Assembly (NCBI GenBank): GCA_964348825.1
Contig: CAYGDX010000002.1
Span: 15,489 to 79,488 of the forward strand
Origin: an uncultured Gammaproteobacteria bacterium
GTDB taxonomy: Bacteria > Patescibacteriota > Patescibacteriia > Veblenbacterales > UBA10138
Length of the DNA: 64,000 nt
Direction: 5' to 3'
The position numbers were made by a program, and so were the translations under genes. Positions 3,426 through 63,303 of this stretch are shown here, in pieces (positions within the stretch are counted from its first letter, which is position 1; each line of letters opens with the position of its first letter). The notes beneath the pieces were generated by a model. The model did no database searches and was not told the DNA's origin. It was given only the letters and a program-made list of their open reading frames with translations.

Positions 3426-3612
3426 AATTAATAAATAACCACATTAAACGACCATTTCTACTACAATCTGAAATACAATTTCATGTCTTGGTCGGGGCAC
3501 TGGGAATCCCCTGCGGGCCTGGGTTGTGCGGTCTATGACATCGCCCAACCCTTCGCTTCCCACCGCGAGTGAAACTATTCACTCGCTTCACCCCTCATTC
3601 GCTTTGGCTCAT

Positions 3613-3684
3613 TCGGGGCACTGGGAATCGAACCCAGTCTACACGCACCCGAAGCGTGTGTACTACCGGTATACTATGCCCCGA
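3613..3684 (-). tRNA. tRNA-Pro (anticodon CGG)
   Basis: Hand-folded cloverleaf. Acceptor CGGGGCA/TGCCCCG, anticodon stem CACGC/GCGTG with loop TTCGGGT, T-arm CTGGG-TTCGATT-CCCAG. CCA is not encoded. Confidence 0.75.
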
Positions 3685-3955
3685 AGAATTAGCGAGATAA
3701 TATTAACCCAAACCTTAAAAAATGTCTATGCGTATAAAAAATAACTAAATAGACCTAAATGTATAAATCCGAAACTCTAATATCTAAATCCTAAATAAAT
3801 CCAAAATATTTAAATTTCTAATTCCTAATTTCTAAAAATGACTAATATCTAAACTCAAAATCTGAAATTAAATTTTAATTTCTAAATTTTAAACCAATTT
3901 TAAATGACTAAATGTTTTAAAATTAAAAATTTATAATTTAAAATTATCAATTACC

Positions 3956-5382: not shown

Positions 5383-5540
5383 TCTAGAGAAGTAGCGCAA
5401 GAGTCGCCGCCTCGGTCTCCAGGTTTGAACAGTGCTCGTCAAACGAGCTGGCTCAAGCTATGCCGAGCGACCACAAACACGCTTGAGCCGGACGCTCGTT
5501 TGCCTTGCGCTCTGTACAAACCCTACGACAGGGCGGCAAA
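5383..5540. repeat. GC-rich ~150-bp hairpin repeat, copy 1 (family of 4)
   Basis: Shares the core GGTTTGAACAGTGCTCGTCAAACGAGC ... GCTCGTTTG ... CTGTACAAACCCTACGAC with copies at 8703, 48046 (reverse complement) and 61958 (reverse complement). Flanked by the palindrome CTACTTCTCTAGAGAAGTAG. Confidence 0.8.
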
Positions 5541-5606
5541 ACATTAGGAATTGGGATTTCGGATTTATTTAGAGTTTAGATATTAGGATTTAGGATTTTT
5601 TAGAAA

Positions 5607-6593: not shown

Positions 6594-6705
6594 GTTAAAT
6601 TAGTTTTAGTTTCGATCATTAGAACACTTAAACATTAGAACATTATTAATAAAAAACTTTTTGTTCTTATGATCTAGTGATTTAATGTTCTAGTGAAAAC
6701 TCTTA

Positions 6706-7593
6706 CTATCCCATACTCAACAACCACAGCCCGGCGCCGATTAAAATCATAGCTTGAATTTTTTGAAAAAGTACTGCGCGAGAAAATTCTTCTTTTAATA
6801 AAGCGGGATGAAAACGTGATAGTACCGCCGTTAACGCCAATAAAAATACATACTGCACTCCTTGCAAAGCATTAACCAAGCTCACACTTGTTAAACTAAT
6901 CGCATAAGTAATAATAAGCCCTGATAGCGCTCCAGCCGTTTGCCCACCCACCACTAACCATTTAAAACTTTTATGACCAGCTGATAAATCATTTCTTAAT
7001 TCCTTAGTCACGCCAGGCAGTAGTAATAAAAATAATCCCGCACCCGCCGCGCCCAAACGATTCCAAATCAAACTAGAAATAAAATTCGTATGCTCTAAAG
7101 AAAATTTAAGTAAAACCGATGATACAGCAAAGGCAATGGCCGCACCAATTGCTAAAATTAAATTAGCGCCTTTTAAACCACTTTTACCTTGAGTAATTAA
7201 TAATCCACCTAAAACTAATAAAACAAAACTGGCAATTTCATAAATAGACAATCGCTCACCCAAACTAATAAAAGCTAAAATTAAAACAAATAGTGGCGAC
7301 CAACTGCCGATTAAAGCCGGCACGCGCGAGGCCTCAGCTGTTTTCAAAATTGCAAACATTAACCACAACCCAACTGTAAAAATTGCGCCGGAAACTAAAC
7401 CAACTAATAAAACCGGAATCGAAATAAACTCCAATCCAAAAGGCGTAAGCACTAAAACAAATAATCCCAAAATAGAAATCATTACCGTATATACGGCGGG
7501 ATTTTTTATTTGTTTACTGGTTAATAAAATTTTATCAACCGCGATAGCCGTGGCGTTTAAAAAATAGCCAATTGCCGCCCAAAGTAACCACAT
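6706..7593 (-). CDS. EamA/DMT-family transporter
   Basis: 295 aa with 10 TM helices. Duplicated EamA halves with a GERLS motif. Confidence 0.65.
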   Translation of the reverse strand: MWLLWAAIGYFLNATAIAVDKILLTSKQIKNPAVYTVMISILGLFVLVLTPFGLEFISIPVLLVGLVSGAIFTVGLWLMFAILKTAEASRVPALIGSWSPLFVLILAFISLGERLSIYEIASFVLLVLGGLLITQGKSGLKGANLILAIGAAIAFAVSSVLLKFSLEHTNFISSLIWNRLGAAGAGLFLLLLPGVTKELRNDLSAGHKSFKWLVVGGQTAGALSGLIITYAISLTSVSLVNALQGVQYVFLLALTAVLSRFHPALLKEEFSRAVLFQKIQAMILIGAGLWLLSMG

Positions 7594-8702: not shown

Positions 8703-8860
8703 ACTTCTTTAGTAGAAGTAACCAAGAATCGCAGGCCACAGTCTTCGGGTTTGAACAGTGCTCGTCAAACGAGCTGGTTCAGGCTATGCACAACTACCAC
8801 AGCACGCCCGAACCGGACGCTCGTTTGACTTCCGCTCTGTACAAACCCTACGACGAGGCC
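8703..8860. repeat. GC-rich hairpin repeat, copy 2
   Basis: Same core as copy 1. The flanking palindrome is degenerate (TTACTTCTTTAGTAGAAGTAA). Confidence 0.8.
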
Positions 8861-9007
8861 GCATAACTGCTAATATTTTTTCATTTTACATCGTCATTTT
8901 CCATTTTGATTTTTAAATTTTAAATTAACAAAAATCCCCTGCTGAACAGGAGATTATTGTTCAATTTATGACTTAACAGTGGGCGACCGTTAGTCCTAAA
9001 TTATAGT

Positions 9008-11938: not shown

Positions 11939-12290
11939 AAGTATATCTTATACCATCCAAAATAAAAACGCCATGTGATTTATAAATTTCTAATCTCTAT
12001 GAATGACTAAGGCGTTTAAATCCTAAACTCTAAACCCTAAATCCTAAACAAACCCAAAATTCTAAATTCAAATGCTTAAAACTTTTTTAGATTTTAGTCA
12101 TTAGGATTTATTTAGAGTTTAGATATTAGGATTTCGGATTTTTGAGGAATTGACCATCATTCTACTTTGCCCCACTACTTAACAAAAGACTCTTGCTTAC
12201 CAGATTTGACTCCAAACCTCTACCGTATTACGTTTAAAGTAAATAAAATACAAATCAATATTCATCAACAAAATAAAAAGGAATGCAAAA

Positions 12291-15217: not shown

Positions 15218-15952
15218 TTATTCCATCTTACTTCTCTTCTTTTTCCTATGGTTTGTATTCAAATATTTATCCTCAACGAAATAATTAACAGCATAAATAA
15301 AACAAACTAGTCGCCACCAAAATTTGCTTATTTCTTTATAAGTTAAATTATCTCCAAAGCATATTTGGTGTACGTACTCATGTCTCTTTTCAAATAATGT
15401 TCCTACCTGATTTTTCCAATCTGGCAAATTAACTTTTAAGTGTAATTTTGTAACAGAAAAGAAATTTTTCTCTACCTTATTTAATCTATGTTGATGGTTT
15501 TCAACTTCTTCTAAAAAATTGCATTTCAATAGTTTGGAAAAAAATGAATCAATCGTTGTTAAATTTTCAAAAAGCCGATCAATTCCAATTAATTCGCTAA
15601 TTCTAATCGGCTTTCTTGACTTACGTGTTCTTAAGAGTTGATAAGCTTCCCAGATTGTTATTTTTTCTTCCAACAGTTTTTCTAAACCATCATTATTTTT
15701 AATAATCTTTATGTCAGGAATATTTTTTAGAAGATCTTTGAAATAAACTTCCGCGGCTGTAACTAAATTTATTACGTAATTTTTTCTAGCATTAATTTTT
15801 ATTGTTTTAGTTTTTGATTTTTTTTCGACTAAGTAAACTAGCCCTACAGACTCAGCAACCTTTTTGTAAAAAGTTGTAATTGCCTCAGGGCCTCTCTGTT
15901 TAAAAAAATTTCTTTCCTTTTCGATTTTTTTAAGTGCATCTGATAAATTCAT
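15218..15952 (-). CDS. hypothetical protein with C-terminal Rx4H (HEPN-like) motif; third gene of the candidate defence island
   Basis: 244 aa, AT-rich codon usage. FEKRHEYVHQ fits the HEPN Rx4-6H signature. No other recognisable domain. Confidence 0.4.
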   Translation of the reverse strand: MNLSDALKKIEKERNFFKQRGPEAITTFYKKVAESVGLVYLVEKKSKTKTIKINARKNYVINLVTAAEVYFKDLLKNIPDIKIIKNNDGLEKLLEEKITIWEAYQLLRTRKSRKPIRISELIGIDRLFENLTTIDSFFSKLLKCNFLEEVENHQHRLNKVEKNFFSVTKLHLKVNLPDWKNQVGTLFEKRHEYVHQICFGDNLTYKEISKFWWRLVCFIYAVNYFVEDKYLNTNHRKKKRSKME

Positions 15953-16192
15953 AGTAAAATTTTATGTCACCTAACATCTCGGGATATCTGATGTTTGCCG
16001 TAGCGTAGCGGAGACAAATATGGGTGGAGGCTTTTGTATAAAAGCCGTAACCAGATATGCCGTGTTATATGATGTATGCTTTTCTTTTTGTCTCGCCTCA
16101 GCGAGACCACTTTTCTGTAATGAACAAATTTTATTTTTGTCTTGGCGAAGGGGCAGAGGGGCTGGGGGTGAATGCCCCGAAGCCAAGACTCC

Positions 16193-17677
16193 TTATTTTC
16201 TTTCTAATTGCCACTTGTAAACTCTTTTAAGCTCATAAACAGTTATTTCTTCATTTTCTTCACATTCTCTCCCTAATTGTAATTGGATGTTATTCTTTGT
16301 TTTCCATGGATCCATTGAGCTTTCCAACAAGTCTTTTATTTTTGATTTAAAAATATTCGTTATTTGAACATAATTCTCGTCCGTTTCTTGGTCATCAATT
16401 AATATAACATCCTTGGGCTTCAAAAAGGAGTATTTATCGTTTATTTCATACAATGTATCAAATTGATATTCTTTAAATTTTTTTTTACTTTCTTCGTCCA
16501 AAATTATTTTTTTATCTGTATAGATCTTAGAAAACTTACCTTTCTTGAATGTTTTTGGAAAAATGTTAACTCTCTTATACTCATCTGTTAAATTTATCTC
16601 TTTACCATTTATTTTAAGTATGTTTCTGCAGCCTGAAAAAGGCCCCATATCTCCTAGAAAATCCACATAGAGATGTGGAAAATCACAGTAAGTATCCCCC
16701 TTGTCATCAATTAATGCGATGTCGGAGTATTTTATCAAACAATCAATAGTAAAATGACCTTTGTGTTTTCGTGGCAGAAAGTCCCAAAAATCATCGACGA
16801 GTTCTTTATTATCAGATATTTTTTTTCTCTCATCGTTATTATGCTCTCGTTGCAGATGAATCAAATCTACTTCTTTAGTAAAATCCCATTCTTTTTTTTC
16901 TGTGTCTATGTATGCAAAATATTCATGATTATGACACCATAGGCCTACTGGGTGATGACTAAATGCAACATATTCCTTCCAGCGAGGCTTTGTCTCAAAA
17001 TCTTTGTACTCCCGTTGATATGGATAATTTGTATCTTTAAGATCTCTCACTAAAACTGACTTATAAAATTGATGGCCTTCCCCAACGGTTCTGAATAATT
17101 TATTTTTTATACTTACCGCCGATCTGATTTCTGCTGTTTTGGACTTTCTTTTACTTACCAGTGAAATGCCAAAAAATGTGAAAAGTATCCTGTCATTTTT
17201 TGGTAAATGTAGCATGTCTTCCAGCTCTGCCTTTCCCCATAGATAAAATTCCATTACACCTTTTTCTCTAAGTTCTTTACGGAATATATCATATGATTCT
17301 TTAGAAAAATTAGCAGACGCGGCTAAGATATACCCATATGGCGGATTTTTTGCATCCACATCAGAAAGAATTGATTTTATTTTTTTTGGACCTATTTCTT
17401 TTTCTCTTTTTCCTTGAATCATCCATAAGTTTCCCTCCATAGGATGAATCAGTTCTTCTTCGACATTATTTTCGTTTTCGGAAGTAGAAATTATTTCAGC
17501 TTTTTCATATGCACGAATATCAAACCCACTATCGCTTCCGCTTCTCCCAGTAGCTTCAATATTCTGCCAATCTTTAAAATCATATATTAATTCTCGAATT
17601 AAATCCTCAAAGCGATGGGGGTCTAAATCCTCAAAATGTATGGGGTTGTATGTTCTTGTGATTTTAGCTTTTGCCAT
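16193..17677 (-). CDS. Mrr-type restriction endonuclease (PD-(D/E)xK) N-terminal domain protein with unknown C-terminal domain
   Basis: 494 aa. The N-terminus follows the Mrr_cat profile order: FEDLIRELIYDF ... ATGRSGSDSGFDI ... WMIQGKRE ... YILAASANFSKESYD ... EFYLWGKAELEDML. The C-terminal ~300 aa is unassigned. Confidence 0.6.
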   Translation of the reverse strand: MAKAKITRTYNPIHFEDLDPHRFEDLIRELIYDFKDWQNIEATGRSGSDSGFDIRAYEKAEIISTSENENNVEEELIHPMEGNLWMIQGKREKEIGPKKIKSILSDVDAKNPPYGYILAASANFSKESYDIFRKELREKGVMEFYLWGKAELEDMLHLPKNDRILFTFFGISLVSKRKSKTAEIRSAVSIKNKLFRTVGEGHQFYKSVLVRDLKDTNYPYQREYKDFETKPRWKEYVAFSHHPVGLWCHNHEYFAYIDTEKKEWDFTKEVDLIHLQREHNNDERKKISDNKELVDDFWDFLPRKHKGHFTIDCLIKYSDIALIDDKGDTYCDFPHLYVDFLGDMGPFSGCRNILKINGKEINLTDEYKRVNIFPKTFKKGKFSKIYTDKKIILDEESKKKFKEYQFDTLYEINDKYSFLKPKDVILIDDQETDENYVQITNIFKSKIKDLLESSMDPWKTKNNIQLQLGRECEENEEITVYELKRVYKWQLERK

Positions 17678-17746
17678 ATTTCTTAATTAATTGTGCTTTT
17701 TGGAAAATGTGGAGAGGTGAATGCCCCAAAGTTAAAGCTACTTCTT

Positions 17747-19951
17747 TTATCCTTTAGTGATCTTTTCAAGTTTACACTTCGGACAAGTGTATTTCGAATT
17801 AGTTCTGTCATTTACGCTTGACTGCCACTCATGGGAACAATTTGGGCAATGCCAAGATATTTTAATTCTGGAGCCACAAGTCATTAAATCAGCCGAATAA
17901 CCTTGTTTATCATTTTTTTCTTTGTCCCAATATTTCATTAAAATGGGATATTTTTCTTTTACAGACCCTCGATTTTTTAAGATCGTCTTTTTATAGGTAT
18001 CAGTTGATTTTTTTATACCACATAGCGGGCAACTACTTAAATTTCCTGTGGTTCTGTTTGCAATAGCTGTATTCCAAGAATGACCGCAAGTTTTACAAAT
18101 CCACCAAACTTTAATTTTACTGCCCGAATGAATTGTATAAGGATCAATATCTTTGTTTTTTTGAAAATCCCATTCTTTCATCAATTGCGAATTTTGATTT
18201 GCAATACTTTGACAAAATGGACACGTACCTTCACCTTTGCTTCTACTTTTGATAGTTGCTTCCCATTTGTGTCCTTTTATACATTTCCACCCTACTCGTT
18301 TTGAACTTCCTGGCGGATACTCCGTGGGTTCTTTTTTGTTTACCTCATAATCCCATTCTTTTAATAATTCAGGATGTTTATTTGCGAAAGTTCCAGTCTT
18401 TTTTATTCGTATCCCAGTTGCCCTTTCACTTCTATTGTTATTCATACAAATTGGACAACCATAGCCCTTTCCAGTTCTACTTCCAACAGAAGCTATCCAA
18501 CTATGACCAATTAGACACTTCCAATTAATCTTTAAAGAGCTCCCAGCGGAAATTTTATTAGGACTATATGTGTTCATTTCGTAATCCCATTCTCTTAACA
18601 TTTCTGGATGGCTCTGTGCGAATGAAATTCCCTTTTTTGTCAGCAATGATTTTCTCAAATTATTTCCTGCGTTGTCTCTATAGCAAATAGGGCAACCGGA
18701 GTTTCTTTTATGTCTATTTTTTATTGATGCCTCCCAAATATGTCCAAGTTTACATTTCCAATAAACTTTTTTCTCTGAATTTGCAGTAAACATATCCGGA
18801 GTCAGTGGATTGTTTTTTGCAAAATCCCACTCTTTAGCTAGTTCAGGATTAATAAATAGTAAACTTTCTTTCTCTGTTGGTGCTGGTAATAAAGATAAGG
18901 TTTTTTTGAATTCATTTTCTCCTATTTGAATTCTATCTAAAATATATTTATCAAATTTAAGTTTTGGATTAATTTTAGAAATAATTTTTAATACACCGAT
19001 CACTAAGTCAATATATTGAGTTTTTTTATCGTAGAGAACAACATCACCATCTATTTTGGGTAACAAAGAATCTCTAACTCTAATTAGATAAATATTGTTG
19101 TCCTTAAAAATTTTATGTTTTATTAAATCTCTTTCAAGTTTATTGTCGTGCCAATATGCACCATCGATTTCAATCCCAAAACCGTCATTTTTTAAAAGGA
19201 TGTCACATTCGTACCCTTCAATTTTTGACCTCCATTTAACATTTTTGAAAAGTTTACTCATTTCGCAAAGAATAAACACCTCTAATTTTGATGTTGAAGA
19301 TTTACAAAAAGGACAACCGCTATTATTTCCAGTTCTGTTATATATTTGGGCTTCCCATGTATGCCCAAATTTACATTTCCAAAAAGCATTTAAATTACTA
19401 TTAGGTGAAATATCATTGGGGTCTATTTTATTTTTAGCATAATCCCACTCAGTTAATAATTCTGGATGTTTTTTAAATAGAATTACTCCTGTTTTTTCTA
19501 ATCTAGCCTTCCTTATTCTTGCACCCTGATTTGTCCTAGAACATATAGGGCAACCATCGCCTCTAGATCTTCTTTGTGGGGTAGATTGCCACTCATGATC
19601 TTCTTTACATTTAAACCAAAAAAGTAAATGACTTTTCTCCGAGACACTTTCTGGTCTTAGATTGTTTTTAAAATAATTCCATTCAGATAATAGTTCTGGT
19701 TTTGCTTGAGCAAAAGAGAGTCCTTTCTTTAACTTACTTTTTCTTATATTTTCATTTTTTATTGGACTGTTGCATATTTTGCATCCATTACTTCTAATTC
19801 GACTAAAAAACGATACATGGTACGTATGTTCCTTTTTACATTTCCACCAAATCTTCTTTGTGCTTGTTTTGGATAGAATAGAAGGGTTAATACCAATATT
19901 TTTTGAATGGTCAAAGTCCTTTAAAATTTTTGAAAAATCTTGTTTTTCCAT
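17747..19951 (-). CDS. multi-zinc-ribbon (DUF4379-like W-C-GH-W-GCP-C repeats) protein with central DUF559/Vsr-like endonuclease domain
   Basis: 734 aa. About 10 repeats of the pattern (H)PEL..EWDY.KN ... W.C..GH.W ... GCP.C. A central block, YECDILLKNDGFGIEIDGAYWHDN ... RD ... IRVRD, matches the DUF559/very-short-patch-repair PD-(D/E)xK fold. Confidence 0.6.
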   Translation of the reverse strand: MEKQDFSKILKDFDHSKNIGINPSILSKTSTKKIWWKCKKEHTYHVSFFSRIRSNGCKICNSPIKNENIRKSKLKKGLSFAQAKPELLSEWNYFKNNLRPESVSEKSHLLFWFKCKEDHEWQSTPQRRSRGDGCPICSRTNQGARIRKARLEKTGVILFKKHPELLTEWDYAKNKIDPNDISPNSNLNAFWKCKFGHTWEAQIYNRTGNNSGCPFCKSSTSKLEVFILCEMSKLFKNVKWRSKIEGYECDILLKNDGFGIEIDGAYWHDNKLERDLIKHKIFKDNNIYLIRVRDSLLPKIDGDVVLYDKKTQYIDLVIGVLKIISKINPKLKFDKYILDRIQIGENEFKKTLSLLPAPTEKESLLFINPELAKEWDFAKNNPLTPDMFTANSEKKVYWKCKLGHIWEASIKNRHKRNSGCPICYRDNAGNNLRKSLLTKKGISFAQSHPEMLREWDYEMNTYSPNKISAGSSLKINWKCLIGHSWIASVGSRTGKGYGCPICMNNNRSERATGIRIKKTGTFANKHPELLKEWDYEVNKKEPTEYPPGSSKRVGWKCIKGHKWEATIKSRSKGEGTCPFCQSIANQNSQLMKEWDFQKNKDIDPYTIHSGSKIKVWWICKTCGHSWNTAIANRTTGNLSSCPLCGIKKSTDTYKKTILKNRGSVKEKYPILMKYWDKEKNDKQGYSADLMTCGSRIKISWHCPNCSHEWQSSVNDRTNSKYTCPKCKLEKITKG

Positions 19952-25320: not shown

Positions 25321-25925
25321 AAATGTTAAGTTAAGAGTAAGAGCAAAGAGTAAGAGTTAATTTTAAATCCGAAGCACTAAATACGAAATCCGAAAATTTA
25401 GAATTTCGATATTCGCCTGCCTGCCGGCGAGGCAGGGATTTGGGATTTTTGTTATATACCCATTACCCCTATATCCTATTATAAGAAATACGACAAAAAT
25501 TGTCAAATGGGGTATCCACTTAAGCAACTAACCGATAATAAATATTAATCCTAGCAACGAGATAGCCGCCACGCCTGAAGCCACTCCAAACCAAAAAGTG
25601 AGTACGGGTGAGGCCTGAAGCCACCAACTCCCCTCATTTGAGGACGTGGGAGTATTATCAAAGTCGGGATCAAAAGTAATATGGGACATAATTAATTAAA
25701 ATCACTAATGACTAATATCTAATTTCTAAAAATCACCAAAACCTAAATCACAATTACTAAAATTAGTTATTAGACATTTTTAGAAATTAGTGATTAGAGA
25801 TTAGAAATTAAAACTCCTCTAAACTCCCGCCTTCCTCCTTCGCCAGAGGCTTCGGAAGGACAAGCCGCGGGAATGACCCCACTTCGCTTTTAGCTACGCG
25901 GGGCAAGCAACTACGCGCTACTAAC

Positions 25926-39807: not shown

Positions 39808-39918
39808 AATAATATTATAACATAAAAATATCTAAAGCTATCCACTTTTAAATCGACTCTTTGATTCCTCCTTATTTTTATATCAAAGGAAAAAATCCCA
39901 CCATAAAGGTGAGATACT

Positions 39919-40106
39919 TTGCCTTGGCAGGGGGTGAAGGAATCCTCTTCCCCCAAAATTTAGCAACGCTTTAGCGTAAGCTAAATTTTTCCTCCAAAAC
40001 CCGGGTGTTTAAAAATCTAAAGCAGTTTAGATTTTTAAACTACCCTTCGATTCCTACCTTCACCACATTCAAGAAAAGAGCGCTTCCAAAAATCGGAACC
40101 GCTCTT
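39919..40106. repeat. tRNA-3'-end-linked repeat unit 1 (starts with 21-nt copy of the tRNA-Trp 3' end)
   Basis: TTGGCAGGGGGTGAAGGAATC, then CTCTTCCCCCAAAATTTAGCAACGC and onward. It matches the 62886..63010 element next to tRNA-Lys at roughly 90%. Confidence 0.75.
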
Positions 40107-40286
40107 TTCTGGCAGGGGGTGAAGGAATCCTCTTCCCCCGTCGTGCTCGAAGACTCGCACTCCTCCGCCAGAACCCGGCGCCCGTTGCGACTGCCACTAG
40201 GCAGTCGGTCGGGTCGCCTTCGATTCCTCTGCCATCTCTACATACCAAGATAAATCACCCCACCGTGAAGGTGAGGTGATTTATCT
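40107..40286. repeat. tRNA-3'-end-linked repeat unit 2 with ~95-nt GC-rich structured insert
   Basis: Starts with the same 20-nt tRNA-Trp 3'-end copy followed by CTCTTCCCCC. It then diverges into a roughly 65% GC segment (40135..40235) that contains the perfect hairpin CGACTGCC-ACTA-GGCAGTCG. Confidence 0.7.
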
Positions 40287-40360
40287 TGGCAGGGGGTGAA
40301 GGAATCGAACCCACGCTAGAGGTTTTGGAGACCCCTGTACTACCATTATACTAACCCCCC
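40287..40360 (-). tRNA. tRNA-Trp (anticodon CCA), CCA encoded
   Basis: Hand-folded. Acceptor GGGGGGT/ACCCCCT, anticodon stem GGGGT/ACCTC with loop CTCCAAA, T-loop TTCGATT. The T-stem has one mismatch. Confidence 0.7.
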
Positions 40361-40374
40361 ATAAGTAGGCGCAC

Positions 40375-40530
40375 CTACTTCGTTTCTTTATGCATCGCGT
40401 GCTTCTTGCACCATTCACAATGTTTTTTCAATTCCAAACGTGTTTTCACTTTCTTCTTATTACGGAAGGTGTGATAATTGATGCGGTGACAAGCACTGCA
40501 TTCCATTTTTATAAGATTATCTTGAGACAT
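40375..40530 (-). CDS. rpmG: 50S ribosomal protein L33
   Basis: 51 aa, below the ORF-track cutoff. MSQDNLIKMECSACHRINYHTFRNKKKVKTRLELKKHCEWCKKHAMHKETK has the C4 zinc ribbon and typical L33 spacing. Confidence 0.85.
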   Translation of the reverse strand: MSQDNLIKMECSACHRINYHTFRNKKKVKTRLELKKHCEWCKKHAMHKETK

Positions 40531-40584
40531 AATATTAGAAATAATAAATAATAAAAATCATTATTACAAGCTTCGGTTTTTACA

Positions 40585-40660
40585 TGGAGCCGATGGTCGG
40601 GTTCGAACCGACGACCTACGGTTTACAAAACCGTTGCTCTACCAGCTGAGCTACATCGGC
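40585..40660 (-). tRNA. tRNA-Thr (anticodon UGU)
   Basis: GCCGATGTAGCTCAGCTGGTAGAGCAACGGTTTTGTAAACCGT ... GGTTCGAACCCGACCATCGGCTCCA, cloverleaf folded by hand. Confidence 0.85.
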
Positions 40661-43411: not shown

Positions 43412-43611
43412 AAAAATATAAATTTCTAATTTCTAATCACTAATTTCTAAAAATAACTAAATTGTTTAAATCCTAAACTCTAAATCTTATTCATCAGAAC
43501 ACTAGAACATTCAAACATTAGAACATTATTAATAAAAAACTTTTCTGTTTTTATGTTCTAGTGTTCTGATGTTCTAATGAAAAACTCTTACTCTTACTTA
43601 ATAATTCTACC

Positions 43612-46778: not shown

Positions 46779-46894
46779 AAAAATTTTTTTAGTTAATAAA
46801 GTTTAATTTATGACATTAGATCACTAGAACACTAGATCATTAAAACAAAAAAATTTTATTAATTAATTTTCTAATGTTGAAGTGTTCTAATGTT

Positions 46895-47212
46895 TTAATG
46901 ACAACTCTTACTAACCCTCAATGGCAACTTTTGTTGCTCGCCAAGTAAGCGACGAGTAGTGCGACGACCAATCACAGTTAACTTTACCTCTTTAATATAC
47001 CATTTTTGCGGCGTTCTTACACCATAACCAGTAAGCAACCCTTTATTAATTAAACTTTCTAAACTTTTAGTAATAATATTCACTAAATCACCATCCTTGG
47101 ACTTTAATTTTTGATCATCATAAAAGTGCACAAAAATATCCCTCTTGATAACCTTCGGCGGTATTCCATAACACGCCTTTAAAATATATTTTTGTAATGG
47201 CGACAAGCGCAT
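46895..47212 (-). CDS. hypothetical protein
   Basis: 105 aa and basic. No motif. Confidence 0.3.
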   Translation of the reverse strand: MRLSPLQKYILKACYGIPPKVIKRDIFVHFYDDQKLKSKDGDLVNIITKSLESLINKGLLTGYGVRTPQKWYIKEVKLTVIGRRTTRRLLGEQQKLPLRVSKSCH

Positions 47213-47982: not shown

Positions 47983-48045
47983 GGCAAATAAATTAAAATG
48001 TAAAAATCAAAATGCAAAATGACAATGTAAAATGAAAAATTAACC

Positions 48046-48212
48046 GTCGTGCAACCCTGTCGGAAAGTTAGCGCAGAGCGGAAGTCAAACGAGCGTCCGG
48101 TCAGGCCGTGTTTGTGGTCGCTGTGCATAGGCCTGACCAGCGAGTTTGACGAGCACTGCCTAACTTGGAGACAAAGGTTGCGACTCTTGCACTACTTCTC
48201 TAGAGAAGTAGA
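48046..48212. repeat. GC-rich hairpin repeat, copy 3 (reverse orientation)
   Basis: Its reverse complement aligns to copy 1 and includes the CTACTTCTCTAGAGAAGTAG palindrome. The internal stem carries compensatory changes (GGTCAGGCC/GGCCTGACC against GGCTCAAGC/GCTTGAGCC). Confidence 0.8.
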
Positions 48213-48232
48213 AAAAATAAATAAATTTTAAA

Positions 48233-49651
48233 CTAACTACCAATTTTTATCCCCAACTCATCCAATTGTTCCTTAGCAACTTCCGATGGTGCGCCCATTA
48301 AAGGATCGCGTACATCGCCCGTGAGCGGGAAAGCAATTACTTCGCGAATATTTTTTTCACCACACAAAATAGAAACCAAGCGATCAAGGCCAGGTGCGAT
48401 TCCACCATGCGGTGGCACACCGTACTCAAAAGCCTCTATCAAATGACTAAATTGTTGTTTTTGCTCAGCTGAAAAACCGATTAAATCCCAAATTTTTTCC
48501 TGCACCCGTGGATCGTAAATCCGCAAACTCCCGCCACCCACTTCCAAACCATTAAGCACTAAATCATGTTGATATGCTTTCGCACTACCCGGATCAGTTT
48601 CAAGCAACGGCAAATCTTCTTCTTTTGGCCGAGTGAACATATGGTGTGAAGGAGCCCATTCACTCTTGCCTGAACCATGAAAAAAGTCATCTTTGGATTG
48701 TTTGTTAAATAATGGAAAATCAATCACCCAAGCAAAGGCGAGTTCTTGGGGATCATTTTTATCTCGCCTTAAATCTGGTTTATCAACACCATACTTAGTC
48801 ATAACTTCAGCGTGTTTTAAACGTGGCCAAGGTGAAAATGTAAAATGTTTCTCAGGAAATAATTTTTTTACCATGCTTACAAACATATCTTCAGTTAAAT
48901 CCAAAATTTCGGCCTGCGACATAAAAGACATTTCCATATCTATTTGATAAAATTCGCCCGGGGATCGGTCAGCCCGTGCATCTTCATCGCGAAAACACGG
49001 CGCAATTTGGAAATATCTTTCAAACCCTGCCACCATCAGCAACTGTTTATATTGTTGTGGGCTTTGCGGTAGGGCAAAAAACTTTCCTTTGTGCACCCGA
49101 CTAGGCACCAAATAATCACGCGCACCTTCAGGCGTGGATTTAGAAAGCATTGGTGTTTGAATGTAAGTAAAATCGTGATCATTTAAATAATCAACTACAA
49201 AACGAATTATACTCGAACGTGATTTCATATTTTTTGCCATTCTAGTGTGCCGTAAATCAAGGTAACGATATTTAAGCCGTAGTTCTTCCGCCGCTTGCCG
49301 TTCTTCATTTTCAATTTCAAAGGGTGGAGTTTTAGCTTGGCTTAAAATTTCTACTTTTGAGGCTAAAATTTCTACACCACCAGTTGCCAAACCAGGATTC
49401 TCGCGCCCCGCATCACGCTTTTGCACCTTGCCGGTAATTGCCACCACAAATTCTGGCCGCATATCTTTGGCGGCTTGGAGCGATGCTTCGTCAACATTGC
49501 TGGGCGCGATAACTACTTGCATGAGTCCGCTACGATCCCGCAAATCAATAAAAACCATTTTGCCTAAATTGCGGCGCACGTGTACCCAACCAGAAAGCAA
49601 AACTTCCTCGCCTATTTTATTAACCGATTCACTAATAAAAATTCGTGACAT
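48233..49651 (-). CDS. aspS: aspartyl-tRNA synthetase (bacterial type, lacking GAD insertion)
   Basis: 472 aa. N-terminal OB fold and class II motifs (FRDEDARADRSPGEFYQID; SHHMFTRP; GGSLRI; GLDRLV). Confidence 0.8.
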   Translation of the reverse strand: MSRIFISESVNKIGEEVLLSGWVHVRRNLGKMVFIDLRDRSGLMQVVIAPSNVDEASLQAAKDMRPEFVVAITGKVQKRDAGRENPGLATGGVEILASKVEILSQAKTPPFEIENEERQAAEELRLKYRYLDLRHTRMAKNMKSRSSIIRFVVDYLNDHDFTYIQTPMLSKSTPEGARDYLVPSRVHKGKFFALPQSPQQYKQLLMVAGFERYFQIAPCFRDEDARADRSPGEFYQIDMEMSFMSQAEILDLTEDMFVSMVKKLFPEKHFTFSPWPRLKHAEVMTKYGVDKPDLRRDKNDPQELAFAWVIDFPLFNKQSKDDFFHGSGKSEWAPSHHMFTRPKEEDLPLLETDPGSAKAYQHDLVLNGLEVGGGSLRIYDPRVQEKIWDLIGFSAEQKQQFSHLIEAFEYGVPPHGGIAPGLDRLVSILCGEKNIREVIAFPLTGDVRDPLMGAPSEVAKEQLDELGIKIGS

Positions 49652-57269: not shown

Positions 57270-57532
57270 AAGTGTAAGAAAAAATAATTATTAACGTTAT
57301 AGTAAATGAATGGAGATGAAATTTTACTCTGACTATGGTAGTATACTAGAGAAAGGACCAATAGTCAAACAAATCAAAATTGTTAAATGTCTAATTTCTA
57401 ATAACTAATTTCTAAAAAATTCCAAATCCTAATATCTAAATTTAGAAATTTAAATTTTTAGACATTAGAAATTAGTCATTAGTTATTTTCAACAACTCTT
57501 ATTAAATATTTTATTATTTATTTTAAACCCCT

Positions 57533-58318: not shown

Positions 58319-58420
58319 CCACTAGAACACTTCATCATTAAAGCATTAAAACACTTAACCACTGAACATCAAATAACCCCGCACTCATTTGAGTACGGGG
58401 TTAAATTTAACTCCTAAAAA

Positions 58421-61957: not shown

Positions 61958-62107
61958 TGCCGCCCTGTCGTAGGGTTTGTACAGCGCGCCTGTCTGCCGG
62001 TAGGCAGGGAATCAAACGAGCTTTAGGTCAAGCCGTGTTGTGGTCGCTGTGTATAGGCCTGACCAGATCGTTTGACGAGCACTGTTCAAACCCTATACCT
62101 GCGCGGC
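61958..62107. repeat. GC-rich hairpin repeat, copy 4 (reverse orientation, with ~25-nt insertion)
   Basis: TAGGGTTTGTACAG ... CTGTTCAAACCCTATA terminal inverted ends. The internal insertion CGCCTGTCTGCCGGTAGGCAGGGA resembles the motif upstream of csoR. Confidence 0.75.
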
Positions 62108-62335: not shown

Positions 62336-62842
62336 TTATTGATTAATAGTTTTTAAATAATAACGTATTACTTTATCTTGCCCATTGCGAAAATTTGATG
62401 GTTTTAAATTTTTAGCTTTAACAAAATGACACTCATACCATCTTTTACCTTTTTTCTTAGGATCACTATCTTGATGTCGCCAAACCTTGTCTACATTAAT
62501 AGATTTGATTGGCTGACAAATAAAATAAATTTGGCAATCAGTGTAATTTATTTTGGGGGCTTGATATATATTTAGCATCAATGGTCGCACCACTCTAACA
62601 TTCAACCCAGTTTCTTCCTTGATTTCGCGCATTACATTATTTTCTACTGAACCACTGGTTACTCCGCCACGAGTCCACTCTAAATATTTTTCTCTCCTAT
62701 TGCCATAAATCCGCTGATAAACCAAAACATATAAATCATTACCTTTCTTAATTTCCACTACTCCACCTATCTTAAGCTCAAAATTATTAGCTAGCTGATA
62801 ATACAAATTCTGCTTCATAGTTTGATTATAACTAAAAAACAA
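62336..62842 (-). CDS. NUDIX hydrolase
   Basis: 168 aa. Nudix box GGVTSGSVENNVMREIKEETGL. Confidence 0.7.
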   Translation of the reverse strand: MFFSYNQTMKQNLYYQLANNFELKIGGVVEIKKGNDLYVLVYQRIYGNRREKYLEWTRGGVTSGSVENNVMREIKEETGLNVRVVRPLMLNIYQAPKINYTDCQIYFICQPIKSINVDKVWRHQDSDPKKKGKRWYECHFVKAKNLKPSNFRNGQDKVIRYYLKTINQ

Positions 62843-62885
62843 AAAAACAGCGAATTGAAGCTGTTTTGTGTACTTTTTAATGGTG

Positions 62886-63010
62886 GGAACGGTGGGGATC
62901 CTCTTCCCCCAAAATTTAGCAACGCTTTAACGTAAGCTAAATTTTTCCTCCAGATCCTGGGTGTTTAAAAACCTAAAGCAGTTTAGGTTTTTAAACTACC
63001 CTTCGATCCC
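62886..63010. repeat. tRNA-3'-end-linked repeat (tRNA-Lys version)
   Basis: Starts with GGTGGGAACGGTGGGGATC, a copy of the tRNA-Lys 3' end. It continues with CTCTTCCCCCAAAATTTAGCAACGCTTTAACGTAAGC ... and the 15-bp-stem hairpin GTTTAAAAACCTAAAGCAGTTTAGGTTTTTAAAC. Confidence 0.75.
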
Positions 63011-63057
63011 TTTTGAATAAAAATTAGAGAGTATCTTAAAATTAAGATACTCTCTAA

Positions 63058-63133
63058 TGGTGGGAACGGTGGGGATCGAACCCACGACAAACGGCTTAAA
63101 AGGCCGCTGCTCTACCGACTGAGCTACGTTCCC
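63058..63133 (-). tRNA. tRNA-Lys (anticodon UUU), CCA encoded
   Basis: GGGAACGTAGCTCAGTCGGTAGAGCAGCGGCCTTTTAAGCCGT ... GGTTCGATCCCCACCGTTCCCACCA. Followed by a 16-bp perfect hairpin (63026..63057). Confidence 0.85.
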
Positions 63134-63303
63134 AGAACAAGCACTTATGTAAATATAACCTAGATATTTGTTTTAAAATTTAGACCTACTTCCTGTCCGC
63201 CGTAGTTACAACGAAGGCGGAAGCTACGTTCCCAAAACAACCAATAATTAAGCAATAAATAAGATACTACCTAACAATAAATGATTTTAAACTATTTTCC
63301 TAA

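Follow-up and report, generated by a model that had tools for sequence, protein, structure and literature searches.

Covarying, protein-less units with target-matched ends behind tRNA genes of Patescibacteria: candidate insertion elements of the tRNA T-loop

In a 64,000-nt stretch of DNA from an uncultured bacterium placed in the Patescibacteriota (assembly GCA_964348825.1, contig CAYGDX010000002.1, positions 15,489 to 79,488; below, the window), the genes for tRNA-Trp, tRNA-Lys and tRNA-Pro are followed by short non-coding units, each of which combines a core with an inverted complement of the T-arm of the tRNA gene ahead of it and with a direct copy of that gene's 3' end. The same family is found behind tRNA genes of other Patescibacteria (the candidate phyla radiation), to which it is restricted as far as seen, and its members share a predicted three-way junction fold with extensive covariation. 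The explanation that we prefer, and hold at about even confidence, is that the units are miniature, protein-less, non-autonomous insertion elements that target the T-loop between tRNA nucleotides (nt) 56 and 57, restore the gene that they enter and are moved in trans via a folded single strand; the single-strand mechanism, taken by itself, commands clearly less confidence. It is the comparative patterns among genomes that point to mobility. We found no description of such an element in the searchable literature. Throughout, sequences are written on the tRNA strand; all seven tRNA genes of the window (identified by ARAGORN) lie on the minus strand, and downstream means towards lower coordinates. 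L numbers (e.g. L019) are our own handles.

Anatomy of the units and their match to the host tRNA

Reading away from the tRNA gene, a unit consists of a terminator-like hairpin, a segment of 9-20 nt that we call A', a core of 89-101 nt and a tail, that is, a direct copy of the tRNA 3' end of 20-23 nt. A' is the inverted complement of the T-loop and T-stem of the host tRNA, and the tail runs from T-loop nt 57 to CCA. The inserted DNA amounts to ~165-185 bp and contains no open reading frame (ORF). With two units behind tRNA-Trp, one behind tRNA-Lys and a reduced variant behind tRNA-Pro (Table 1), this small, non-coding and multi-copy sequence is present in four copies at three of the seven tRNA genes in 64 kb.

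The 3'-terminal 20 nt of tRNA-Trp (GATTCCTTCACCCCCTGCCA) recur in both tails of the tRNA-Trp array, where they are joined to GGGGGAAGAG at the end of the core (CTCTTCCCCC on the plus strand). A first-pass annotation, made from the sequence alone, had already reported these tandem copies, as well as the recurrence of the unit 1 element beside tRNA-Lys at about 90% identity; both are borne out, the former by exact 20-nt repeats and the latter by 93% identity over 117 nt (39939-40055 vs 62895-63011), the 101-nt cores of unit 1 and of the tRNA-Lys unit being likewise 93% identical. The unit length of ~185 bp that it gave comes out as spacings of 177 and 185 nt between the tRNA-Trp end copies, and the tRNA-Lys copy to which the second core is indeed fused is 23 nt long, not 19 nt. 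Alignment further showed, as the annotation had not, that unit 2 is structurally the same element as unit 1: the two share the conserved junction sequences, and both hairpins of unit 2 are wholly different in sequence. The stretch of unit 2 that matches model R1 (40122-40230, 109 nt) has a GC content of 64% vs 36.7% for the window. Also unreported had been the inverted complement of the T-loop and T-stem, the spread of the family across Patescibacteria and the variant at tRNA-Pro, for which a single-sequence fold is no better than shuffles and the hairpin P3b (see below) is absent.

The core/tail junction had been placed in the T-loop, and at all loci, both in the window and in the wider family, it falls exactly between tRNA nt 56 and 57. 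In the main family it reads TTC/GATTCC or TTC/GATCCC (a slash marks the junction), and the same point is used by families of unrelated sequence at tRNA-Ser (TTC/AAATCTC, L019) and tRNA-Thr (TTC/AATTCC, L007). Taken from nt 54 on, the target is matched by A' as its reverse complement over a contiguous 9-14 nt, in some cases with further stretches that reach the complement of CCA, and A' changes with the host: GGAATCGAA is found for the target TTCGATTCC, GGGATCGAA for TTCGATCCC, CAGAGAATCGAA for TTCGATTCTCTG, AGGGGGAATCGAA for TTCGATTCCCCCT and GTGGGGATCGAA for TTCGATCCCCAC. The tRNA-Ser family has A' GGATTTGAA for TTCAAATCC, again with a three-way fold closed by A' and tail. The GAA of A' complements nt 54-56, which the element's own tail lacks, and A' therefore spans the insertion point of an intact T-loop. 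No unit stands behind the window tRNAs whose T-loops differ (Thr TTCGAAC, Tyr TTCGAAT, Thr TTCAATT and Asn TTCAAGT).

The target duplication is 17-23 nt long and ends at the tRNA end, and the sole inverted repeat of the element (A' plus tail) is target-derived. Two ways of accounting for the tails were rejected. One is a long target duplication that includes the terminator hairpin: the hairpins after tRNA genes and those after the copies are unrelated, except for hpX and the outermost hairpin hpZ at tRNA-Trp, which are ~68% similar outside the tRNA copy. The other is a derivation from mature tRNA, the presence of CCA in the tails being inconsistent.

Table 1. Coordinates of the units, their host tRNA genes and associated features in the window
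Feature	Position	Strand	Basis or detail
tRNA-Trp (CCA), intact, with a T50.T64 mismatch in the T stem	40287..40360	-	ARAGORN; Rfam tRNA 57.9 bits
Hairpin hpX after tRNA-Trp, terminator-like; CCA within the stem	40235..40286	-	stem 40274-40255
Unit 2 A' TGGCAGAGGAATCGAA: inverted complement of tRNA-Trp nt 54-63 plus CTGCCA, with a 7-nt internal deletion	40219..40234	-	
Unit 2 core, 89 nt: P2 hairpin, junction, P3 hairpin, GGGGGAAGAG end	40130..40218	-	alignments; model R1 87 bits, E 6e-21
Unit 2 tail: exact 20-nt copy of tRNA-Trp nt 57-76 (displaced or spare 3' end)	40110..40129	-	
Hairpin hpY, between units 2 and 1	40066..40109	-	
Unit 1 A' TGGTGAAGGTAGGAATCGAA: inverted complement of T-loop, T-stem and CCA, internally rearranged	40046..40065	-	
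Unit 1 core, 101 nt	39945..40045	-	R1 121.9 bits; predicted fold
Unit 1 tail: second exact 20-nt copy of tRNA-Trp nt 57-76	39925..39944	-	
Hairpin hpZ, intrinsic-terminator-like, plus T run	39890..39924	-	stem 39915-39895
tRNA-Lys (TTT), intact	63058..63133	-	ARAGORN; Rfam
Terminator-like hairpin after tRNA-Lys	63011..63057	-	16-bp stem
Lys unit A' GGGATCGAA: complement of tRNA-Lys nt 54-62 (TTCGATCCC)	63002..63010	-	
Lys unit core, 101 nt	62901..63001	-	R1 120.2 bits
Lys unit tail: 23-nt copy of the tRNA-Lys 3' end (nt 57-76 plus 3 nt)	62878..62900	-	
Terminator-like hairpin after the Lys copy	62840..62877	-	
Reduced variant behind tRNA-Pro (3612-3684)	3489..3564	-	R1 23.5 bits, E 6.5e-4
Parts of the Pro variant: A' GGTGGGAAGCGAA; 43-nt core; copy of nt 57-73 plus CCA	3552-3564; 3509-3551; 3489-3508	-	
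Exact copy of tRNA-Lys nt 1-12, 100 nt upstream of the gene (5'-side family)	63222..63233	-	

Distribution, fold and turnover of the family

The family was sought in one genome each of 185,579 species, in a metagenome collection and in viral contigs, using a pattern composed of ATCGAAGG, then TGGNGGA, then GGGGGAAGAGGAT, separated by variable spacers. The species genomes gave nine matches, eight of them in metagenome-assembled genomes labelled Patescibacteria (including Azam-, Moranii- and Kerfeldbacteria) and the ninth on a 3.6-kb contig from a bin labelled Gammaproteobacteria; the metagenome collection gave 19 matching loci, and the viral contigs gave none. Among the resulting 28 loci, 19 are elements with two hairpins on Patescibacteria-type contigs. 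The other nine (human-gut contigs and L026) fall within coding regions, show no hairpins and no tRNA and were rejected as chance matches, which makes them a negative control for the pattern. Merging of duplicates leaves ~20 distinct units at ~15 different tRNA loci.

The association with tRNA genes, which the first-pass annotation had wanted checked elsewhere, is exclusive wherever upstream sequence is at hand. An upstream tRNA is present in 16 of the 19 element loci, the first unit starting 45-70 nt past a same-strand tRNA (Trp, Glu-TTC, Glu-CTC, Gly-TCC, Lys or Asn) and second units standing in tandem behind the first, and the remaining three loci are at contig starts (L013, where the 3' part of the tRNA is visible; L025, with almost no upstream sequence; and L024, a duplicate of L003). 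In most element loci the tail repeats its host tRNA without a mismatch over 14-23 nt, starting at nt 57 and ending with the discriminator or CCA. Two of the sequences (L001 and L034) belong to a sister genome, which matches the window at 97.5% identity and has the same tRNA-Trp array. No copy of the core was found in viral contigs, GenBank phages or PLSDB plasmids, and in the search against Rfam 15 only tRNAs reached the gathering score, with nothing else credible at E ≤10.

RNAalifold, run on 11 and then on 18 members, predicts a three-way junction. Its closing helix P1 is formed by A' (GGRATC and beyond) paired with the tail (GATYCC and beyond), and is followed by an unpaired GAA, a long hairpin P2, an unpaired RGG and the helix P3a (CUCU:AGAG), which is stacked directly on P1; beyond P3a come an invariant purine-rich internal loop (GGAGGA or GGGGGA) and a variable hairpin, P3b. 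In the 18-sequence alignment 92.7% of the cells hold standard pairs and 24 of the 34 pairs show double-sided changes, a level of pairing and covariation that none of 500 column shuffles attained; sliding the partners by 1-3 columns lowers pairing to 33-53%. Several invariant motifs of the main family are imposed by the search pattern, and the covariation of P1, P2 and P3b is not. In P3a, the first unit of L003 has CUGC:GCAG in place of CUCU:AGAG.

Hammerhead, hairpin, HDV, hatchet, pistol, twister and group I ribozymes were considered as models for this fold and rejected, as the junction strands, inspected by eye, do not fit and no model hits were obtained; weak miRNA-like Rfam matches merely reflect the hairpins. 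The pairs comprise 546 Watson-Crick vs 12 G-U and 16 A-C, with no strand bias, and a strand assignment from G-U vs A-C counts was accordingly abandoned; both strands fold equally well under DNA parameters. A terminator-like hairpin follows each tRNA end and each tail, and there is no promoter-like site ahead of A'. The nearly exclusive use of Watson-Crick pairs, together with these terminator-like hairpins and the lack of a promoter-like site, favours a structure at the level of DNA over one at the level of RNA. The A':tail helix is found in all members, its two strands being imperfect inverted repeats able to form a duplex-like site.

Search for a protein partner was negative. An all-against-all comparison of ORFs around 16 loci revealed no protein family common to them, there is no TnpA or TnpB in the flanks or in the window ORFs scanned, and in L023 the 6 kb between two tRNA-Asn fragments encode, by Pfam, proteases and a helicase, with no integrase.

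Tandem units carry unrelated P2, P3 and hairpins, and the assignment of units 1 and 2 of the window to different sub-families argues for separate acquisitions at one tRNA. The sister genome has, in the P2 loop of unit 1, a 46-nt insertion of two small GC hairpins (L001 6996-7041, L034 3467-3512) that is absent from the window (equivalent site near 40018). Some tails look decayed: that of L006 has two mismatches, that of L007 is interrupted by a 19-nt palindrome and that of the second L003 unit is lost, to which may be added the shrunken variant at tRNA-Pro. Overall, the tandem mosaic units, the GC contrast, the insertions, the tail loss and the shrunken variant are signs of selfish DNA.

Empty sites exist as well. 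The tRNA-Glu-CTC gene of L040, identical in its 3' half to those of L021 and L028, has no unit, and L041 is empty too; the element is thus not a fixed part of these tRNA genes. Such empty tRNA-Glu sites were seen only in more distant lineages, and the close relatives found all have the same array. Look-ups by neighbouring genes gave the same two haplotypes only (L33 and an RNase T-like gene) or distant empty sites only (MurF), and the inositol monophosphatase neighbourhood is not syntenic in relatives. L021 and L028 are 99.5% identical through tRNA, unit and tail and diverge totally from the tail end on, the difference being a strain-level, single-gene indel of 2.1 kb between the tail and murF, one end of which falls exactly at the end of the tRNA-Glu 3'-end copy. 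The indel gene encodes a glycine-rich protein of ~650 aa with a signal peptide (L021 11336-12988 with L038 2797-4281, vs L028 1789-1876).

The copies of the tRNA-Trp end evolve together. Position 64 is T in all three copies of the window and A in all three of the sister genome; from tRNA-Trp into unit 1, over 341 nt, the two genomes differ by only two mismatches, both at position 64, and the third copy differs likewise. The sister genome and L007 have the pair T50-A64, vs T50.T64 in the tRNA-Trp of the window. Such co-evolution of three copies with the tRNA needs recurrent exchange between them, and this exchange seems to have spread a slightly damaging T64 change into the tRNA-Trp gene; the same T in both downstream pseudo-ends suggests conversion from a pseudo-end into the gene. 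If the elements are active, an essential tRNA seems to receive mutations from them, the T-stem mismatch of tRNA-Trp being common to the two pseudo-ends. Between rpmG and tRNA-Trp the sister genome has an additional 128-aa ORF of PF05635 (23S rRNA intervening-sequence protein, Avd-like), and upstream of rpmG a PDDEXK_5 ORF; the PF05635 and PDDEXK_5 ORFs (L034 2069-2464 and 2684-3070) are missing from the window (equivalents ~40360-40585).

A second family occupies the 5' side of tRNA genes. The first-pass annotation had noted a 12-nt copy of the tRNA-Lys 5' end, and this copy is exact (Table 1) and separate from the 3' element. In this layout, with the tRNA-Lys insert at 63134-63233 (minus strand), the copy of nt 1-12 comes first, a GC-rich hairpin next, and ~90 nt separate these from the gene. 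It recurs before tRNA-Arg-CCT and tRNA-Arg-GCG in L019, with clearly homologous inserts, and before other tRNAs of L007 and L019 (including tRNA-Thr of L007). The 5' copies are exact or near-exact and lie 100-130 nt upstream, and the GC-rich hairpin is followed by an AT-rich promoter-like stretch. No inverted target copy was found in the 5'-side inserts. This looks like a mirror-image family that would insert between tRNA nt 12 and 13 and restore the 5' end.

Other repeats and genes of the window may be listed briefly. A ~19-nt palindrome, CCTGCCTRCCGGYAGGCAGG, occurs as a clean insertion in the window (61989-62008), in L007 (2661-2680 and 4396-4415), in L019 (2375-2393) and in L031 (624-643); its hosts include the tRNA-end copy of L007 and, in the window, one copy of a GC-rich repeat, and it may be a tiny mobile hairpin that different Patescibacteria share. 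That GC-rich repeat, ~150 nt long and without an Rfam match, has four copies (5395-5545 and 8720-8870 on the plus strand, 48035-48240 and 61990-62100 on the minus strand) in an AT-rich intergenic setting, each copy bordered by periodic AT-rich repeats. Intergenic AT-rich repeats whose period is 8 nt (of the CAYTAGAAC... and TAAATCCTAAAC... types), in direct and inverted pairs, are found at 197-280, 6611-6712, 43492-43583, 46811-46917 and 58320-58351, and further at 3761-3898, 12014-12143, 25696-25812 and 57368-57489. Three adjacent genes at 15218-19951 form a small defence-like cluster, with a weak, sub-cut-off Pfam match to HEPN RiboL-PSP, a restriction-endonuclease-like Mrr_cat protein and a protein of 734 aa in which the DUF4379 treble-clef zinc finger is repeated eight times.

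Proposed mechanism and competing explanations

According to the explanation that we prefer, insertion between nt 56 and 57 would bring in a 3'-end copy, a terminator-like hairpin, A' and a core of ~90-100 nt. Since an extra 3' end and a hairpin are supplied, the tRNA gene would stay whole; the redundant 3' end would remain behind the core, and repeated insertions would build tandem arrays. In the single strand A' would pair with the 3'-end copy and close the three-way junction, with the branch point exactly at the insertion point, and a site-specific recombinase encoded elsewhere would act on this folded strand. The A':tail duplex would rebuild the right half of the target, placing the branch point opposite the exchanged bond, and the GAA of A' (the complement of TTC, nt 54-56) would span the cut and help to select T-loops of matching sequence. 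One strand exchange between the element (...GAAGAG/GATYCC) and the tRNA (...TTC/GATYCC) would yield, in this order, tRNA, 3' end, hairpin, A', core and old 3' end, and replication would then fix the insertion. We infer, in other words, insertion at the site as opposed to an origin in place, a recombinase encoded in trans, a single-strand intermediate and the enzyme that acts on it. Such a single-strand model would explain the inverted target copy, the strict Watson-Crick pairing of both strands, the tolerated bulges of A' and the transcription signals that are unlike those of an RNA gene.

A broader proposal, which we put forward only tentatively, as having a real but minor chance of being right, is that of a new class of nucleic-acid-guided mobile elements, in which a protein-less unit of ~185 nt recognises T-loops through its own guide, the 9-14 nt of A'. 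The folded single strand that inserts at 56/57 might be DNA (taken up, or exposed at replication) or RNA; retargeting would come about by a change of both guide and spare 3' end, and the mirror-image family would act at 12/13 of the tRNA 5' end. If active, the elements would look programmable, in that guide and spare 3' end change with the target.

Several observations weigh against insertion via a folded single strand in trans. No recombinase, transposase or reverse transcriptase was detected near any copy or in the 10 window ORFs scanned, and no near-isogenic empty site, excision product or circle junction was found. The single-strand model leaves retargeting unexplained. The ~93% identical cores of unit 1, the Lys unit and a tRNA-Glu unit of the sister genome (L002) are combined with unrelated hairpins, A' and tails, so that either retargeting replaces everything but the core, or gene conversion homogenises the cores and the insertions are old. 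In the second case homogenisation within a genome would be gene conversion between the conserved end blocks of the cores, an idea that the mosaic of P2 and P3 types (e.g. in L007) fits. In addition, GGGGGAAGAG/GATYCC beside the junction is a poor mimic of the T-arm inverted repeat at classical tyrosine-recombinase spacing, the invariance of sequence within the family should not be over-read, being partly imposed by the search pattern, and the conserved unpaired purine-rich strands (GGAGGA or GGGGGA) and the tRNA-like 3' end would suit a functional RNA too.

A functional structured RNA is in fact the rival to be taken most seriously, unlikely as we consider it. The unit would be a read-through co-transcript, processed by the tRNA-end machinery and mimicking the acceptor/T-arm, that serves as a decoy, regulator or processing aid; this would accommodate the strong covariation, the invariant purine-rich unpaired strands on the tRNA-sense strand, the orientation that always matches the tRNA, the tails that end exactly at the discriminator or CCA and whose identity with the tRNA is maintained in both of two diverging genomes, and the very high predicted stability of read-through transcripts (z -9 to -10), in a phylum where group I introns are common and reliance on RNA elements is heavy (PMC13011429). 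It is difficult, however, to reconcile with terminator-like hairpins that separate tRNA and element, with no promoter-like site ahead, with G-U pairs at only ~2% and no strand bias, and with copies that tolerate insertions, a lost tail or a lost P3; moreover, related tRNA-Glu genes lack the element, two different units can stand behind one tRNA, and no Rfam family corresponds. A narrower RNA-level possibility, with a slim chance of being right, treats A' as a group I-like internal guide that aligns TTC/GATYCC, whereupon the 3'-terminal G of the core would attack the 56/57 bond in a reverse-splicing-like step and the RNA would be copied back to DNA. Although GGRATC/GAA is arranged like a P10-plus-P1 guide for TTC/GATYCC, its GAA having no partner in the element's own tail, and the main-family core does end in G, a group I fold needs far more sequence than the core offers, no ribozyme match appears at E ≤10, and the Ser and Thr variants are not G-ended. 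The evidence of CCA cuts both ways, as the Pro and L013 unit tails have it where the gene does not, but it is inconsistent, with the L005 and L009 tails lacking it. A published survey, furthermore, detected no group II introns, the retroelements that it had looked for, in the complete Patescibacteria genomes that it covered (PMC13011429).

The first-pass annotation had offered two readings, an att scar or a small element that targets T-loops. A discrete folded core, the absence of an ORF or a nearby integrase and the inverted target complement support the second, and a plain integrase scar fits poorly. As a scar, the units would be integrase islands at the T-loop that decayed to att regions (cis-mobilisable remnants) and accreted in tandem, which we regard as improbable. 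Such islands typically show displaced 3' fragments, tandem accretion and T-loop junctions (PMC4383910, PMC5704250), another tRNA-Asn fragment, of 25 nt, lies 6 kb downstream in L023 and the strain-level 2.1-kb indel between L021 and L028 adjoins a tail copy; but random decay cannot leave one covarying fold of 89-101 nt at ~20 loci in several candidate phyla, there are neither gene remnants nor an integrase in the flanks nor any phage, plasmid or viral match, and an inverted target complement such as A' is foreign to classical attP or attR. Chance or generic T-arm similarity, the caveat attached to the first reading, can be excluded: the T-loop TTCGATYCC is common to many tRNAs, but the identity extends over 17-23 nt, taking in the T-stem and acceptor strand, which are tRNA-specific, as far as the discriminator or CCA, and at every locus it follows whichever tRNA is the host.

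If the elements are active, no smaller site-specific insertion elements that restore their target gene would be known; they would account for a recurrent oddity of tRNA loci in a huge and little-understood branch of small-genome bacteria, and the recombinase or RNA activity that acts on them in trans might be worth finding. For annotation, they are a new non-coding motif absent from Rfam, at which short-read assemblies break at tRNA loci.

Relation to known systems

Integrons and the CTX phage provide the closest precedent for the single-strand step: recombination of a folded single strand, which needs replicative resolution, is established for integron attC sites and CTX attP(+) (PMC4792948, PMC3053210). 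As in those sites, the elements have imperfect inverted repeats ~100 nt apart, pairs that are nearly all Watson-Crick and tolerated bulges; unlike them, they form a three-way junction instead of a simple hairpin and have a tRNA T-loop as target. Neither the R''/L''-L'/R' boxes of attC nor a 28-bp dif-like XerC/XerD site was found in the element alignments. A short internal sequence complementary to the target across the insertion point is a feature shared with IS200/IS605 ends, IS110 bridge RNAs and group I and II introns. On the other hand, no TnpA, TnpB, IS110 recombinase or intron core accompanies the units, and the corresponding Rfam models are unmatched. Palindromes derived from IS200/IS605 differ further in lacking a target duplication, vs 20 nt here, and group I introns in possessing a P3-P9 core with a G-binding site, where the core of the present elements has two hairpins only and no Rfam intron match.

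Miniature inverted-repeat transposable elements (MITEs) are likewise small, non-coding, multi-copy and structured, and presumably moved in trans. The present family, by contrast, has neither family-wide terminal inverted repeats nor a short fixed target duplication; its inverted repeat (A' plus tail) is copied from each target, and its insertion is strictly site-specific. Cis-mobilisable elements (CIMEs) resemble it in that att-like repeats flank integrase-less DNA and in their tandem accretion at tRNA 3' ends (PMC5704250); they are, however, decayed relatives of identifiable integrative and conjugative or mobilisable elements (ICEs and IMEs), without a common structured core, and no such parent is known here.

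The nearest overall likeness is to tRNA-gene islands, for which gene-restoring insertion, a displaced fragment, sites in the T-stem region and tandem arrays are established and form the basis of island mapping (PMC4383910). As in islands built by tyrosine integrases (the 'Islander' principle), insertion takes place in a tRNA gene and a replacement 3' end is supplied, and an intact tRNA goes together with a displaced fragment in direct orientation that runs from the loop to the 3' end. Unlike islands, the units measure ~165-185 bp and not kilobases, have no integrase and no ORF, contain a conserved covarying fold and an inverted target complement, and share one core across at least six tRNA species. 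By analogy, they may be described as miniature tRNA-gene-specific integrative elements that follow the gene-restoring logic known from tRNA-gene islands.

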